Of a stretch of 64,000 nt of DNA, positions 57,333 through 64,000 are shown in pieces. The DNA is taken from contig CAWHAE010000016.1 of assembly GCA_963827235.1 (NCBI GenBank), positions 576,001 through 640,000 on the forward strand, in the 5' to 3' direction. Source of the DNA: an uncultured bacterium. Its GTDB lineage: Bacteria > Chloroflexota > UBA5177 > JANWHV01. The position numbers and the translations under genes are program-made. Numbering within the stretch: position 1 is the first letter of the stretch; each line of letters opens with the position of its first letter. The notes beneath the pieces were generated by a model, which worked only from the letters and a program-made list of their open reading frames with translations, was not told the origin of the DNA and made no database searches.

Positions 57333-57776
57333 CTAGGCCCCGGAGCTGCCGAAACCGCCGCGCGCCGGGGCGTCCATGGCGGAGACCTCCTGCCACTGAG
57401 CGCGGTCGACACGCACAAAGATGCCTTGCGCCACGCGCTCGCCGCGGTGAACGTACACGGGCTCAGTGGTGAAGTTGTAGACCTGGCACAGTATCTCGTC
57501 GTCGTCGCCGCGATAGTCCTGGTCGATCACTCCTATTCCGTGCGGCACGGAGAGGCCCTTGCGCCGTGGCGTCGAGCTGCGCGAAGCCACCAGCAGCATG
57601 TACCCTTCCGGCGTGGCAACGGCCACACCGGTCGGCAACAGCGCTATCTGCCCCGGTTGAATGACAGTCTCCTCCCGGCAGAAGAGGTCAAAACCTACGG
57701 AGCCCGGTGACGTATACGCCGGCATCGGCAATTCTGGGTCGAGCCGGCGGATGGTGACAACGAGCTTCTCAGCCAC
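57333..57776 (-). CDS. dut: dUTP diphosphatase (trimeric)
   Basis: SVGFDL, SRSS, GVIDQDYRG, RVAQ, RGGFGSSG. Confidence 0.93.
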   Translation of the reverse strand: MAEKLVVTIRRLDPELPMPAYTSPGSVGFDLFCREETVIQPGQIALLPTGVAVATPEGYMLLVASRSSTPRRKGLSVPHGIGVIDQDYRGDDDEILCQVYNFTTEPVYVHRGERVAQGIFVRVDRAQWQEVSAMDAPARGGFGSSGA

Positions 57777-58602
57777 CGGGCAGGATAATGCCGCTCGGTC
57801 GCACGGAGCCCCCAGACGGTGGTAGCGGGCGGCCATAAGGATCAACCAGCCCGGATGACTGCTGCACGGGCTGTGCGGGCTCGCCCTCAGGGTTGCTGAG
57901 TCGCCGCGCTATCTCCATGAAGCGGTCCGTGACTTGCTTGGCCGGCACGCCATACTGCTTGGCCACCTCGTCCGGATCTGCCTCGATCCCGTCCAGAGCA
58001 AGCACACACATGTGCGTGGCCGCCAACCAAGCGGTGACATCGGCTGCCGGATTCAGGTCCCTGCGCAGGGCGTGCCAAAAGCGAAGCCCCTGCTCCAGCA
58101 TGTGCAGGCCCGCGCCATCAGCCTGCAGCTTGGCGAGAAGCAGCTTGTCCGCCGAGTCGATCTCTTCCGGATGCTCCAACTCAAGCTGCATCTGTCCGTT
58201 ATAGAACATCACGGTAGGCTCGAGTATGACGTCGACGGTGAAATCGAGATCAGCAGGGACCGGCCAGATGTCGTCGACCATCCAGGCGCCGTTCTCCGAG
58301 CGGAGGACCACGGTGCTTACAGACACGTCCTCATCTTGCGCGTCGCGTCCGCGCACCTCGGCCACCGCCATCTCTTCGCCGACCTCGGCCATCGAGAGCC
58401 CAATCTGCTTGGGATTGGCCGCTAGTCCCAGAGGGACTCCCAGGGCGCTCATGCCGAACAGTGCTACTCCTTCGCGCTTGATGCTCCTCTCCGAAAGTAC
58501 AGCGAGCGCCGCCGGGACGTCGTCGTGCAGCACAGCGTCAATCAACGCCGTCACGGGAGTAACCACCGGCTCGGCGATCGCCTCTTGCGGGCGTAAAGTC
58601 AT
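57769..58602 (-). CDS. hypothetical acidic protein (NTF2-like N-part, C-terminal HTH-like part)
   Basis: Long ORF with SD GGAG, overlapping the dut start; VVLRSENGAWMV; EVAKQYGVPAKQVTDRFMEI. Confidence 0.75.
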   Translation of the reverse strand: MTLRPQEAIAEPVVTPVTALIDAVLHDDVPAALAVLSERSIKREGVALFGMSALGVPLGLAANPKQIGLSMAEVGEEMAVAEVRGRDAQDEDVSVSTVVLRSENGAWMVDDIWPVPADLDFTVDVILEPTVMFYNGQMQLELEHPEEIDSADKLLLAKLQADGAGLHMLEQGLRFWHALRRDLNPAADVTAWLAATHMCVLALDGIEADPDEVAKQYGVPAKQVTDRFMEIARRLSNPEGEPAQPVQQSSGLVDPYGRPLPPSGGSVRPSGIILPGG

Positions 58603-60280: not shown

Positions 60281-60329
60281 TGACATGAACTGGTCATGTT
60301 TCAGTATAGCTGGAGCGCAGGCATGTCAC
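60281..60329 (-). promoter_or_regulatory. putative fumC promoter (-10 TATACT) with ACATGA-N5-TCATGT inverted repeat
   Basis: TATACT at 60308-60303 (minus strand); inverted repeat at 60283-60299; additional CATGTCA half-site at 60322-60328. Confidence 0.45.
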
Positions 60330-60463
60330 GGGCAGGGGGCGACGAGGGCTGACGAAATACTCGTGGCGCGGTCGTAACGGAGCACTCTACTCGAGTGCTC
60401 GCCGTCCGCGGAGTACGTGCCCGATCCGCTAAGGATGGGCACTCAAGGCAGGCTGCCTGAAAC

Positions 60464-61450
60464 CTAGCGGCCTACCTCGAGGTCTCGCAGCGTCGACAGG
60501 AGGAAAGCATTGGCAGGGGCGAACTGGCGCCCGATACCGCGCTTCAACTCGGCGATTGCCTCGTCGGGGTCCCGTGGCGCCCTGTATGGGCGACCGGAGC
60601 GAATCGCCTCATAGGCGTCCGCCAAGCCGATCAACTGGGCATGAATGGGTATGGCGTCCTCGGACAAGCGATCCGGGTACCCGGTGCCGTCCCAGCGCTC
60701 GTGATGATGGCGGACCGACGGAGCGAGGTGAGCAAGACAGGCCACGCGGCGGACCATGCGGTCTCCGGCCGCGGGATGAATGCGCAGCGAGCTCCATTCG
60801 CCGTTGGAAAGGGTGCTGCGTTTGCGAAGCAGCTGAGTGGAGACGCCGATCTTGCCGATATCGTGCAGCACGGCGGCCGTCTCAAGCGCCAACAGGTCGC
60901 GCGCATTGAAGTTCATGGCTCGCCCGAGGCTCGCCGCGAGCCGTCGCACCGTGTACGAATGCCTGGCCGTGGCAGGCTCATGCGCCTCCAGCATCTGCAT
61001 CATGGCGTCCGCGGCCTGCTGCATCGTATCGAGGCGACCTGCCGAGGCAAGAAGCAGAGCGTGCACATGCGCAGCGTAGCCCCTGGCCAGGGCAATGTAC
61101 TCGTGCTGGCTGGCCACGTACCCGTAGTCATAGAGCACGACCAGCGCACCGCGCATACCGAGCACCGGCTCGACAGGAGAGGCAGCCAACCCCGGGCGGC
61201 TTACGCCTTCGCCGCTCTCGAGCACGCGCAGGGCGTGGGCCCTCCACGCATTGAGATGGCCACGGCCGGCCGCCATGTCCGAGAGCTCGCCACCTTTCGA
61301 GGCTAGCAGCAGCCTGGCACCGATGCCCGCGCCGGACGCCTCGTCGAGAATAGCTTGCAGTGCCGGCCGCAGCAGCAGATCACAGTCCCAAGGGCAGTCG
61401 CATATCGGCTGTGCCGGGTTAACCGGCAACAGCCTCGCTGCATTCAGCAT
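60464..61450 (-). CDS. HD-GYP domain phosphodiesterase with degenerate GAF-like N-terminus
   Basis: TARHS, LHDIGKIG, IHP, HHERWDGTGYP, RPYR. Confidence 0.92.
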   Translation of the reverse strand: MLNAARLLPVNPAQPICDCPWDCDLLLRPALQAILDEASGAGIGARLLLASKGGELSDMAAGRGHLNAWRAHALRVLESGEGVSRPGLAASPVEPVLGMRGALVVLYDYGYVASQHEYIALARGYAAHVHALLLASAGRLDTMQQAADAMMQMLEAHEPATARHSYTVRRLAASLGRAMNFNARDLLALETAAVLHDIGKIGVSTQLLRKRSTLSNGEWSSLRIHPAAGDRMVRRVACLAHLAPSVRHHHERWDGTGYPDRLSEDAIPIHAQLIGLADAYEAIRSGRPYRAPRDPDEAIAELKRGIGRQFAPANAFLLSTLRDLEVGR

Positions 61451-61673
61451 GGGTCACAGCCTTCCCGTACAGTCGTGGCAACAAGATGCTTGCAAACGTG
61501 CGCAGATCGCGTGCCTGGATGTCTGCCACCATGGCAGCCTCTTTGGCCGAAAGTCCGAATTCGAGCGCTGCCGCGCCGGGGTTGCCGAGCAAGGCCGCCC
61601 CAAACGAGTGATCGACCGCGGCGGTACCGATAAGCCGCTCGAAGCTTGCATGTAAAGTCGGATGCGGTGCCAT
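61419..61673 (-). CDS. 84-aa NHLP/Os1348-like leader-type small protein
   Basis: ERLIGTAAVDHSFGAALLGNP...FGLSAKE; SD GAAAGGG; lies between the repeat gene and the HD-GYP gene. Confidence 0.7.
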   Translation of the reverse strand: MAPHPTLHASFERLIGTAAVDHSFGAALLGNPGAAALEFGLSAKEAAMVADIQARDLRTFASILLPRLYGKAVTHAECSEAVAG

Positions 61674-61705
61674 GATCAGGATCCCTTTCAGGTGGTAGGA
61701 GTGAT

Positions 61706-62182
61706 TCAGCGCTTCGAGTGGCTGGCGGTAGTCTTGGTATGACTCTTGGTCGCGTGCAAGGGGCCACCGTTCGCGCCGCCTGCGCTGCTCAGCCTGATAG
61801 CGAGCGGTCCGCCACTCGCGCCGCCTGCACTGCTCAGCCTGATAGCGAGCGGTCCGCCGTTCGCACCGCCTGCGCTGCTCAGCCTGATAGCGAGCGGTCC
61901 GCCGTTCGCGCCGCCTGCACTGCTCAGCGAGTGGGCCAGGGGGCCACCGTTCGCGCCGCCTGCACTGCTCAGCCTGATAGCGAGCGGTCCGCCGTTCGCG
62001 CCGCCTGCACTGTTCAGCGAGTGGGCCAGGGGTCCGCCATTCGCTCCGCCTGCACTGTTCACAGCGGCATGGAAGGCACGGCCGGTGGTTGCCGCGTGCG
62101 CTTGCGTATCCACGTGAACGGCCGCCAGGCAACTTGCGGAAAACACGATGGCAATGGCAACGCGTCGAATTGCATGCGTCAT
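61706..62182 (-). CDS. secreted protein with seven 15-aa repeats (core SAGGANGG)
   Basis: SD GAGGAG; Sec signal MTHAIRRVAIAIVFSASCLAAVHVDTQAHA; differences between repeat copies are mostly synonymous in this frame. Confidence 0.85.
   Translation of the reverse strand: MTHAIRRVAIAIVFSASCLAAVHVDTQAHAATTGRAFHAAVNSAGGANGGPLAHSLNSAGGANGGPLAIRLSSAGGANGGPLAHSLSSAGGANGGPLAIRLSSAGGANGGPLAIRLSSAGGASGGPLAIRLSSAGGANGGPLHATKSHTKTTASHSKR
61761..62062. repeat. 45-bp tandem repeat, about 6.7 copies
   Basis: Units start at 61761, 61806, 61851, 61896, 61941, 61986 and 62031; two linker variants (CTGATAGCGAGC and GAGTGGGCCAGG). Confidence 0.95.
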
Positions 62183-62197
62183 GGCAGTATGCTCCTC

Positions 62198-62213
62198 TAG
62201 GACAAACGTTCTA
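62198..62213. promoter_or_regulatory. LexA-like palindrome TAGAAC-GTTT-GTCCTA upstream of the repeat-protein gene
   Basis: TAGGACAAACGTTCTA on the + strand, abutting the SD; same architecture as the box at 57214-57229. Confidence 0.45.
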
Positions 62214-62504
62214 TACCACAGCAAAGCTCAGTACTCTTACCTGCTTGACGTGGTTATCCTCTTCAACCGGGGCCGCGTACGACTGCCGCTAGCTGCAGCC
62301 ACGCCCGTACCCGGACGCTCCCAGAAACGAGACCACCTACGTCTGTTCGCGATCGCAGACGCACACTGTTTGGCGGCAAACTGTCATATAATAGCTGTGG
62401 CTGTCAACCGCGCCTTAGGACCCAGTTCGGCCATTTGCCGCCGAAGGTAGGTTAGCATAGAGACCCTGGGCGCACCCTGAGACGATTTCAGGAGAGAGTA
62501 GCCG

Positions 62505-64000
62505 GTGACAGACGGCAACATGCCCGGCAATCCTGCCTGGTCTTCGGCCAAGACGCGAGTTCCCTTGCCGCGTATCCTCGTTTCACGCCCGCGCCTTATC
62601 CAGCCGCTCAACACCGCGGCCGAAGCCGGCCGCGTCACCCTGATCGTCGCGCCCGGCGGATCGGGCAAGAGCACACTGGCGGCCGATTGGACTCGGCAGG
62701 CTACCATGCCCGTCGCGTGGTATACGGTCGACGCCGCCGACCGCGATATCCGCCGCTTGGCGGCCGGGGTATGCGGAGCGATCGCTCGCGTGCTCCCCGG
62801 CGCCGCCGACTCGGCCATGCGTGCGATTGAAAATGGTGCTACCGAAGTCGCTGCTATCGGTCTTCTGCTTGACAGGCTGGAAAACGAGCCGCTGACTCTC
62901 GTGCTCGACGACTTTCACCACCTCGACGGCGTGCCGGAAGCCACCGCACTGTGGGAACACTTCTTCCGATTCAGGCCGCCGACCCTGGCGCTCACCATCC
63001 TCTCCCGCACCGTGCCCATTCTTGGCTTTGCCATGCTGGCGGCAATGGATGCTCTGCTCGGACTTGGGCGCACCGACCTCAGCTTCGTGCCTGACGAGGC
63101 AGCCGAGCTGCTGGCCCGGCACGGCCTGGACCCGGCCCCGGCCGCCCAGTTCGTGACCCGCACCGACGGTTGGGCGACGGGATTGCTCATGCTCGCGAGA
63201 GCAGCTCCCAGCGGAGTTCGCCAGCTCCACGTGCGCGTTGATACCCTGATGAACCAGCTTGGTGCCGAGCTGCTTAGCTCGCTGTCCGTCGATCTGCGCA
63301 CCTTCCTGCTCGAAAGCGCCTCGCTCGGCCCGGTGACGCCGGAGCAAGCTGACGACCTTCTCGGCCGTGCCAACAGTCTGGCGCTGTTCGGCGACATCTT
63401 GCAGCGAGGCCTCTTTCTCGCCAGAGAAGCGACGACCTACCGGTATCACGATCTCTTTGCCGAGTACGCTGTCGCGGTTCTACGTACCGAAGACCCTGCT
63501 AAGCTGCGCTCGATTCGCGAGCATGCCTCCGCCTACTGGTGCGACCAGGGCGACCTGCCGCGCGCGCTCGGTCTCTTGGCCGAGGACGGCAACTGGCTTG
63601 CGCTGGCTGCACTGCTCGAGACCCAGCGGGGTGCTCTCTGGAGCCGCGCCATGTGGGGAACCGCCATCGACATGGTCGAGCGGCTGCCCGAGAAGTATCG
63701 CACCCCACGCGTCCTGTCGCTTAGCGCGACCTGTCACACCTCCCGCGGAGAGTACGCGCAGGCGCTGGCACAGGCCGACGCGGGCATGGCCCTGTCGCAT
63801 GACGAGAGCGAGTGGCTGAGCTGTGCCGTGACACACGCCGACACGCTGCACTGCGAAGGAAGGCTCGAGGAATGCGCGCGGAGTGCCGATGCCGCGCTCG
63901 CCGTAGCGCGGAGAATCGAGCACGGCGCCGCCATCACCCGCTTGCTCAGCCTGAGAGGCCGTGCGAGGCTCGGCCTCGGCATGATGGACTCCGGCATGGA
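62505..64000 (+). CDS. MalT-like STAND ATPase transcriptional regulator with helical/TPR-like region; 3' truncated, absent from the ORF track
   Basis: Translated by hand: AKTRVP, VSRPRL, Walker A APGGSGKST, AWYTVD, Walker B LVLDDFHHL, RTDGWATGL, YRYHDLFAEY; SD AGGAG before GTG at 62505. Confidence 0.9.
   Translation, partial: MTDGNMPGNPAWSSAKTRVPLPRILVSRPRLIQPLNTAAEAGRVTLIVAPGGSGKSTLAADWTRQATMPVAWYTVDAADRDIRRLAAGVCGAIARVLPGAADSAMRAIENGATEVAAIGLLLDRLENEPLTLVLDDFHHLDGVPEATALWEHFFRFRPPTLALTILSRTVPILGFAMLAAMDALLGLGRTDLSFVPDEAAELLARHGLDPAPAAQFVTRTDGWATGLLMLARAAPSGVRQLHVRVDTLMNQLGAELLSSLSVDLRTFLLESASLGPVTPEQADDLLGRANSLALFGDILQRGLFLAREATTYRYHDLFAEYAVAVLRTEDPAKLRSIREHASAYWCDQGDLPRALGLLAEDGNWLALAALLETQRGALWSRAMWGTAIDMVERLPEKYRTPRVLSLSATCHTSRGEYAQALAQADAGMALSHDESEWLSCAVTHADTLHCEGRLEECARSADAALAVARRIEHGAAITRLLSLRGRARLGLGMMDSGM

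Follow-up and report, generated by a model that had tools for sequence, protein, structure and literature searches.

A divergent gene cassette of Chloroflexota combining a MalT-like STAND regulator, an Os1348-like protein and a putative multi-core pro-peptide

The window analysed here is a stretch of 64,000 nucleotides from the genome of an uncultured Chloroflexota bacterium (G000:C16:576001-640000; labels with G, L and f denote genomes, extracted loci and genome families, respectively). Close to its end, three minus-strand genes encoding a repeat protein, a small Os1348-like protein and an HD-GYP protein are placed head-to-head with the gene of a large MalT-like STAND regulator. This arrangement is confirmed as a real conserved module and not a product of chance, because three paralogous copies exist in the genome and cassettes of the same kind are found in all four of the other genomes of the genus. 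With a confidence that we would put at about even, the locus is read as belonging to a lineage-specific form, in three copies, of a signalling cassette conserved in Chloroflexota, for which a four-part mechanism is proposed in the Discussion.

Results

Gene order and paralogous copies of the cassette

A preliminary description of this DNA had pointed to three close-packed minus-strand genes, with a 32-bp gap and a 32-bp overlap, lying head-to-head with a MalT-like STAND gene across about 320 bp. The list of open reading frames (ORFs) agrees with it: the gap (61674-61705) separates the gene of the 84-amino-acid protein from the repeat gene, the overlap (61419-61450) joins the start of the HD-GYP gene to the end of the Os1348-like gene, and the STAND start at 62505 lies 322 bp from the peptide start, its reading frame running past the window end (Table 1).

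When the genome was analysed by tblastn and with ORF lists, two further cassettes with the same order and orientation were detected (C10:961428-966164 and C12:604816-609585). In each of them the HD-GYP gene is overlapped by an Os1348-like gene, and beside these lie a small signal-peptide ORF and, in divergent orientation, a STAND gene encoding 1065 or 1070 amino acids. Conserved synteny in relatives, which the preliminary description had named as a check, is provided by the three paralogues and the four other genus genomes, and for the core pair of regulator and Os1348-like protein it extends across the phylum. A related-locus search with the single Os1348-like protein returned one locus, on the same contig as G002:C684.

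The peptides of the three cassettes are mutually unrelated in sequence. That of the window (C16) has seven cores ending in Gly-Pro-Leu, that of C10 has one Gly-rich stretch ending in Pro-Pro-Ile-Phe and that of C12 has three cores ending in Gln-Pro-Phe. Orthologues of the window copy retain the Gly-Pro-Leu core with differing DNA and copy numbers (five cores in G001, four in G004, three in G003 and two in G002), and the C12-type peptide of G002 has three cores. A further cassette type, present in G003 and G004, encodes a peptide with only one core, and the place of the HD-GYP protein is taken by a receiver-domain protein. Core copy number among the relatives thus ranges from one to seven. A signal-peptide ORF adjoins the regulator in all nine genus cassettes in which the slot lies on the contig, as judged with a crude hydrophobicity rule and by eye. 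A DUF5317 gene is absent from the cassettes of this genus, and three such genes are found elsewhere in the genome.

The branching among 35 STAND proteins agrees with the genome families (tree from a quick search, supported by the Shimodaira-Hasegawa-like approximate likelihood ratio test, SH-aLRT, only). In this tree the family of the window forms a single STAND clade with 100% SH-aLRT support, which holds the three paralogues, none of them accompanied by DUF5317.

Table 1. Position of the cassette features in the window.
Feature	Position	Strand	Description and basis
HD-GYP protein gene	60464-61450	minus	328 aa; GAF-like and HD-GYP; ORF and Pfam
Os1348-like NHLP-clan gene	61419-61673	minus	84 aa; small helical protein; NCBIfam NF038399
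Repeat protein gene	61706-62182	minus	158 aa; multi-core pro-peptide, putatively secreted; ORF and Shine-Dalgarno
Seven tandem core and spacer units in the pro-peptide gene	61742-62056	minus	Tandem Repeats Finder and unit table
Divergent intergenic control region (putative)	62183-62504	no strand	322 bp between peptide operon and STAND gene
STAND regulator, first 498 residues of 1058	62505-64000	plus	full gene would end at window coordinate 65681

The cores of the repeat protein are under selection

A secreted protein with a sevenfold repeat had been described for the first gene of the operon, and translation gives seven 15-residue units. Tandem Repeats Finder reported an array with a period of 45, 6.6 copies, 85% matches and a score of 415 at 61767-62061. 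Each unit consists of an 11-residue conserved Gly-rich core ending in Gly-Pro-Leu-Ala, followed by a variable spacer of four residues. The ATG is preceded by a GAGGAG Shine-Dalgarno sequence, and a putative signal peptide of about 30 residues was recognised by eye, with two arginines in its N-terminus, 15 hydrophobic residues and an A-x-A motif. Inside the hydrophobic segment a cysteine (Cys18, 62129-62131) is kept in all five orthologues of the window copy.

To analyse how the units vary, the seven of them were compared codon by codon. The 11 core codons showed 80 synonymous and 12 non-synonymous codon-pair differences, whereas the four spacer codons showed five synonymous and 40 non-synonymous ones. 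As the differences in the cores are nearly all synonymous and those in the spacers are non-synonymous, the reading frame is real and the cores are under selection. This pattern is the signature of selection on a peptide core in the annotated frame and speaks against a non-coding operator array. The data support a reading of the repeat protein as a multi-core pro-peptide, its cores conserved by synonymous change and its spacers free to vary.

The product of the repeat gene had no match to any Pfam or NCBIfam family. A search of a collection of 5.8 billion proteins gave 35 candidates sharing words with it, none of them with E ≤ 0.001 at a length of 86-277 amino acids. No RNA dataset was listed for 60400-62700, and one DNA run covered a minor fraction (0.15) of the words sampled.

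The regulator is a MalT-like STAND protein ending in BTAD

The complete regulator ORF (L003:4505-7681) encodes 1058 amino acids. Pfam matches to AAA_16 and AAA_22 were found near the N-terminus, the NTPase lying at residues 38-155, and BTAD was detected at residues 919-1036 (50 bits, cut-off 22.1). The stretch ahead of BTAD looks like an OmpR-type winged helix, and Trans_reg_C was detected in one of the paralogues (paralogue B) and in G030. The domain order is thus a MalT-like NTPase, a helical sensor, a winged helix and BTAD, so that the C-terminus, for which the preliminary description had recommended looking beyond position 64000, turned out to be a winged helix plus BTAD and not LuxR.

The assignment as a MalT-like STAND regulator was sustained by NTPase homology, as phmmer aligned residues 26-380 with the MalT chain 8bob_C at E 2.5e-31. 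The match to the MalT equivalog NF003420 had E 1.4e-47 and 162.3 bits, far under its cut-off of 537. Among 35 aligned homologues, BTAD was present in all and TPR_MalT in 30.

The Os1348-like protein is predicted to dock on the NTPase domain of the regulator

The 84-amino-acid protein matched NCBIfam NF038399, "Os1348 family NHLP clan protein", with 42.0 bits (cut-off 40), and the two paralogues of the genome scored 36.5 and 28.1, under that cut-off. Its match to Pfam Frankia_peptide was sub-threshold (20.8 bits, cut-off 48). The predicted structure has six helices, with a mean predicted local distance difference test score (pLDDT) of 82.6. In Foldseek, the best fold match of this model was Os1348 itself (6lk7), although weak (E 0.32, probability 0.82, template modelling (TM) score 0.42-0.45), and by sequence phmmer gave E 0.17 against 6lk7. 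Further weak fold matches were a precursor of a ribosomally synthesised and post-translationally modified peptide (RiPP) bound to its enzyme (7lts_B) and nitrile hydratase. In the genome family of the window (f1), the Os1348-like proteins end in Ala-Gly.

The Os1348-like protein was tested against the STAND protein because the STAND NTPase is its constant neighbour. A complex was predicted from STAND residues 1-800 (35-row alignment) and the Os1348-like protein (43-row alignment). The three runs scored 0.78, 0.77 and 0.78, and the best of three controls scored 0.00; the mark was attained in calibration by 58 of 80 solved complexes and by two of 110 mismatched pairs, a calibration that holds only roughly here, as custom unpaired alignments were used. 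Contact agreement between the runs was at least 77%, and the pLDDT of the partner was at least 77. The predicted interface consists of residues 4-23 and 57-68 of the Os1348-like protein, which are its two most conserved helices, and residues 46-48, 147-151 and 170-191 of the STAND protein. By alignment with 8bob_C, the STAND side maps to MalT 139-143 and 162-183, and by hand mapping it includes eight of the ten positions equivalent to MalT residues contacted by MalY.

According to PMC10427625, which reports the structure of MalT-MalY by cryo-electron microscopy, MalY contacts R143, R147, L162, P163, Q164, G166, A168, N169, V172 and R173 of MalT. These residues sit on helices alpha7 and alpha8, a surface that is also the oligomerisation interface, and binding of MalY there blocks activation (PMC10427625). 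It is unlikely that recall of the MalT-MalY structure produced the score, because the Os1348-like partner is unrelated to MalY. The model thus predicts that the Os1348-like protein binds the NTPase domain of the STAND protein on a MalY-type surface.

The HD-GYP protein has an intact catalytic site

The 328-amino-acid protein matched Pfam HD_5 (PF13487) with 119.2 bits (cut-off 27.2, E 2e-34). In a 14-sequence alignment, H164, H196, D197, K200, H225, H249, H250, E251, D254, G255, G257, Y258 and P259 are invariant, and these positions cover the metal-binding His and Asp residues and the HHExxDGxGYP motif, the window protein included. Every catalytic residue is thus present in this protein, for which the preliminary description had proposed an output through turnover of cyclic di-GMP (c-di-GMP). 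The model (pLDDT 87.9) had 4mcw as its best fold match (E 2e-14), followed by 4r8z and 9rbz, and residues ~27-106 resemble GAF domains such as that of DosS (E ~0.02, target TM ~0.6). The HD-GYP enzymes of other families carry PAS and GAF domains. From its sequence, the protein is likely to be the c-di-GMP-degrading output of the cassette.

Upstream of the peptide operon, the intergenic region shares conserved blocks with its orthologue in G001, with a mean column identity of 85% in a 379-column alignment that also includes the flanking gene starts. Rfam gave no match at the gathering threshold in four cassette loci (66 kb).

Regulator and Os1348-like protein form a core pair in Chloroflexota

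At E ≤ 0.001, NF038399 matched 31 of 41 related genomes (11 above the cut-off; the tally includes the unpublished G018). Most matches within the class belong to a different subfamily of 69 residues in unrelated contexts, and 23 of the first 30 loci had neither HD-GYP nor STAND genes within 1.5 kb. The f2 and f3 matches were rejected as cassette members, as they constitute this separate subfamily in unrelated contexts. Proteins of the f2/f3 subfamily (L008, L012, L015, L024) have 69-78 residues with a conserved Trp-Thr-Ala-Arg-Trp end, and their genes sit between large conserved genes of unrelated look.

A profile of the cassette-type Os1348 protein was then built from nine proteins, and it matched 95 of 401 genomes of the phylum at E ≤ 1e-6 (including the unpublished G226). 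In 20 of the 30 best loci, examined with 1.5-kb flanks, a protein of 1430-1500 amino acids is encoded directly upstream of the Os1348-like gene, with adenylate/guanylate cyclase, AAA_16 and TPR domains as shown for the member of G030; the other ten have a BTAD-type STAND gene, an HD-GYP gene or both.

Wider flanks were scored in 48 loci, made up of 40 further hits with about 7 kb on each side and eight earlier loci; as the loci were picked from the top of the ranking and not at random, the fractions describe this sample and not the phylum. A BTAD-type STAND gene was found within 6 kb in 41 of them, 36 of the 41 being full length. A gene for the cyclase-AAA_16-TPR protein lies directly upstream in three loci, one of which also has a BTAD-type STAND gene 2 kb away. 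Five loci have neither STAND type: three are cut by the contig end beside the gene, one is on a contig of 6.4 kb and one has nothing within 7 kb. HD-GYP genes were present in 27 loci and DUF5317 genes in 15. Judging from this gene neighbourhood, the STAND regulator and the Os1348-like protein constitute a core pair that recurs across Chloroflexota.

In f13 and some other families, the Os1348-like gene follows a gene for a cyclase-AAA_16-TPR protein of about 1440 amino acids (L039:7765-12307, G030), from which it is separated by 3 to 44 bp in the three loci measured, with no HD-GYP or peptide gene present. The Os1348-like protein may regulate STAND-type cyclases too. Separately, one ORF of G035 (L010:1492-1947) joins an N-terminal NHLP-like domain to a run of about a dozen hexapeptide units in tandem, and the ORF next downstream starts, by eye, like a cyclic-nucleotide-binding regulator.

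The peptide slot in other families

Outside the genus, the STAND and Os1348-like genes are separated by 300-1100 bp that hold an ORF of 33-50 residues. Its product starts with a basic N-terminus, continues with a single hydrophobic helix and closes with a short tail rich in Gly, for which Gly-Ala-Pro-x-Asp-Gly-Gly is a common form, and it is often followed by a membrane protein of about 195 amino acids, DUF5317 (E about 1e-34). A small slot ORF was present in 35 of the 48 loci; in 32 of these its product has a segment resembling a signal or membrane helix, and in three it has none. For this count, a crude hydrophobicity script flagged 34 ORFs, three of which (L073, L077, L108) were dropped by eye, and that of the window itself was added. 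Among the 32, those of L084, L089 and L098 differ in having tails of an unusual kind.

The three slot ORFs without a hydrophobic segment belong to G025, G281 and G076. That of G025 has a single core. The ORF of G281 (L073:7016-7189) has 57 codons with four tandem 11-residue units and has lost the hydrophobic helix. When nine f8 peptides were aligned, Pro and Asp proved invariant, and both the G281 unit and the G025 peptide fell on the C-terminal tail of the single-core peptides found in sister genomes; the G281 array is visibly derived from that tail. In G076 (L104:4927-5397, minus strand), two ORFs between the STAND and Os1348-like genes consist only of tandem 10-residue units, in an array interrupted by a masked run of N. 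These units have a seven-residue core, Asn-Pro-Glu-Ser-Phe-Gly-Ser, that varies almost only synonymously, and no signal peptide. By sequence comparison, tandem amplification of the tail or core arose in at least three lineages, namely f1, G281 (f8) and G076 (f14). From this repeated amplification, the tail or core emerges as the part of the peptide that does the work.

The genome of the window has three further loci with a mini-peptide gene and DUF5317 (C12:682663-683666, C10:736381-737287 and C18:72077-73014), the first of them with twin peptide genes. Those on C10 and C12 adjoin membrane GAF-GGDEF-HD-GYP proteins, and the STAND regulators beside them have a BTAD-AAA_16-TPR architecture on C10 and an XRE-HTH-NTPase-TPR architecture on C12. 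Among the ORFs listed for the three loci, none was Os1348-like.

In four f8 genomes (L071, L080, L100, L038), read-through frames upstream of the peptide share a Leu-Lys-Pro-Val-Leu-Lys-Pro-Gly-Gly-like stretch, which suggests a conserved DNA or RNA element ahead of the f8 peptide gene.

Neighbouring genes

Two ORFs near the cassette are conserved in G001. One of them, of 277 amino acids (57769-58602, minus strand), lies between the dUTPase and fumarase genes and had no Pfam match. The other, of 201 amino acids, lies downstream of the STAND gene just past the window (L003:7872-8477, plus strand); it belongs to no Pfam family, shows weak receiver-domain likeness (E 0.003-0.02) and is possibly a pseudo-receiver.

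Discussion

In the mechanism that we propose for the cassette, the STAND protein would act as an ATP-dependent activator, combining a MalT-type NTPase and sensor with a SARP-type winged helix and BTAD, and would most likely drive the divergent operon. The first product of the operon would be exported, its seven Gly-rich Gly-Pro-Leu cores being the functional units, and these cores would most likely be the cue, direct or indirect, for the sensor part of the STAND protein. The Os1348-like protein would bind the oligomerisation surface of the NTPase and hold the regulator at rest in the manner of MalY, providing negative feedback, and the GAF-like HD-GYP enzyme would lower c-di-GMP as the output. 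Promoter control by the STAND protein and the processing and sensing of the peptide are the steps that we infer.

Several observations weigh against this mechanism. Neither a protease nor an importer stood out in the ORF lists printed for the flanks. The sensor region of the window regulator gave no significant Pfam match to TPR, with TPR_12 (E 0.04) and ANAPC3 (E 0.008) alone appearing. A scan of 60300-62700 detected no consensus sigma-70 promoter and no terminator, and a repeat search of the intergenic region detected a 7-nt direct repeat in two copies together with short inverted repeats, none of which made a convincing operator. The inhibitory direction assigned to binding of the Os1348-like protein would follow from the analogy with MalY, and the complex is itself a model. 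The three slot peptides without a hydrophobic segment imply that export is not universal in the wider family. Finally, the conserved Cys18 of the pro-peptide fits a relaxed lipobox, so that this protein may be held at the surface by a lipid anchor and not be soluble.

In a different and, in our view, somewhat unlikely explanation, the STAND and Os1348-like proteins are a self-contained pair that senses an intracellular ligand, and the slot peptide serves as an accessory at the membrane or surface, possibly lipid-anchored, and not as a diffusible signal. Such an accessory would modulate membrane partners, in the way that small membrane proteins act on sensors, and would have drifted in this genus into a repetitive surface protein. 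It would account for the fact that the slot peptide of most other families is a single-pass product of 33-50 residues, beside DUF5317 in 15 of the 48 loci, and for the three peptide-DUF5317 loci of the genome, two of which lie beside membrane GGDEF/HD-GYP proteins and none of which has an Os1348 gene among the printed ORFs. The presence of the putative lipobox cysteine in five of five orthologues and the lack of an importer or protease standing out in the printed flanks would also agree with it. However, short cores were amplified in tandem in at least three lineages, and selection acts on the cores and not on the spacers, which points to a short core as the working unit and not to a folded or anchored protein. 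In addition, some relatives have lost the hydrophobic segment.

Another explanation would be a RiPP cluster, in which the Os1348-like protein or the repeat protein is the precursor. According to PMC7726476, the founding Os1348 of Pseudomonas sp. Os17 is a six-helix dimer of 85 amino acids, encoded with GNAT, HEXXH and SagB-type genes in cluster OS3 and proposed as a likely modified antibiotic precursor, a proposal that also counts against the role of inhibitor given to its relative here. The 84-amino-acid protein attains the NF038399 cut-off and matches Frankia_peptide weakly, its weak fold matches include the RiPP precursor with its enzyme (7lts_B) and nitrile hydratase, and the Ala-Gly end of the f1 proteins is reminiscent of leader cleavage sites. 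However, the f1 protein stops at this would-be cleavage site, so that no core is left. No GNAT, HEXXH peptidase, SagB-type or other maturase gene was found beside the three cassettes of this genome, the loci that this check covered, and the genes that follow encode signalling enzymes (HD-GYP in 27 of the 48 loci, or a receiver domain). The absence of a maturase, protease and importer noted in the preliminary description thus holds for the ORF lists of the flanks printed. Its view of the 84-amino-acid protein as leader-like has lost ground, as the protein is the most constant partner of the STAND protein and is predicted to bind the NTPase domain; a role as leader or precursor is unlikely, and a RiPP cluster as a whole is improbable.

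That the 45-bp array would be a set of non-coding phased binding sites for the winged-helix/BTAD regulator, with an ORF arising by accident in GC-rich repeats, is very improbable: SARP-type regulators bind direct repeats, all frames except one are open across the array and the GC content at third codon positions (GC3) failed to single out a frame within it, but the cores vary at third codon positions, a Shine-Dalgarno sequence and a signal peptide are present, and the orthologues hold the Gly-Pro-Leu core with different DNA and copy numbers.

If the proposed mechanism is compared with known systems, the closest is MalT-MalY of the Escherichia coli maltose regulon. The cassette regulator shares with MalT a homologous STAND NTPase and helical sensor, and in the predicted complex its NTPase domain is likewise bound at alpha7/alpha8 by a separate protein. 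In contrast to MalY, which is a pyridoxal phosphate (PLP) enzyme, this partner is an 84-residue NHLP-fold protein encoded in the operon adjoining the regulator; at its DNA-binding end the regulator has a winged helix and BTAD where MalT has LuxR, and its ligand would be another than the maltotriose of MalT.

As in the RRNPP signalling of Firmicutes (Rap-Phr, PlcR-PapR, NprR-NprX, Rgg-SHP), a small gene for a putatively exported pro-peptide adjoins that of a cytoplasmic repeat-domain regulator, and the peptides are hypervariable between paralogous cassettes. Here, however, the receptor candidate is a STAND ATPase of about 1060 residues (AAA_16/AAA_22) and not a bare TPR protein, two extra conserved genes (Os1348-like and HD-GYP) are present and the phylum is a different one. 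The SARP/AfsR regulators of actinomycetes also join a winged helix and BTAD to a STAND NTPase and TPR-like repeats, but in the cassette the order is inverted, with the NTPase first and BTAD last; the AfsR-like order is present elsewhere in the genome, beside a DUF5317 locus. Precursors of the yeast alpha-factor type resemble the pro-peptide in having several short conserved cores with spacers between them behind one signal peptide, but no processing protease is known for the cassette. With cluster OS3 of Pseudomonas sp. Os17 (PMC7726476), the cassette has in common an all-helical protein of about 85 residues of the same NCBIfam family, and differs from it in having no modification genes and in having a STAND regulator and signalling enzymes as neighbours.

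The preliminary description had considered the arrangement uncharacterised, and literature searches did not contradict it: no description of the cassette was found in the full-text literature searched, whose coverage excludes most subscription journals. In the same literature no paper was found on DUF5317, and for Os1348 only the Pseudomonas study (PMC7726476) was relevant. What is new here is the form of the cassette in this genus, with an operon that diverges from the STAND gene, where the form with DUF5317 is co-directional, a Sec-type signal (by eye), up to seven tandem cores, no DUF5317 and three paralogous copies. Also new are the evidence for the cores as selected units and the docking of an NHLP-fold protein predicted, by modelling, to be MalY-like.

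To our knowledge, peptide signals that act through cytoplasmic receptors have been worked out almost exclusively in Firmicutes, the switching of the numerous large STAND transcription factors in bacteria of soils and sediments is mostly obscure, and NHLP-fold proteins are otherwise known only from peptide natural-product clusters. The cassette offers a compact case, with one regulator, one predicted inhibitor with a defined interface, one candidate cue of about 10 residues and one enzymatic output. It provides a first functional hypothesis for NHLP-like proteins without a core peptide or maturases, which may be protein-binding regulators of STAND NTPases, the cyclase-STAND proteins included, and the repeated independent amplification of the tail marks which part of a tiny peptide matters. 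Tentatively, and with some doubt, Chloroflexota may own a form of peptide cell-to-cell signalling, with a STAND receptor, an amplified exported pheromone, an NHLP-fold anti-activator clamp and c-di-GMP breakdown as the read-out; if so, the three paralogous cassettes with their unrelated cores would constitute three private signalling channels in this bacterium.

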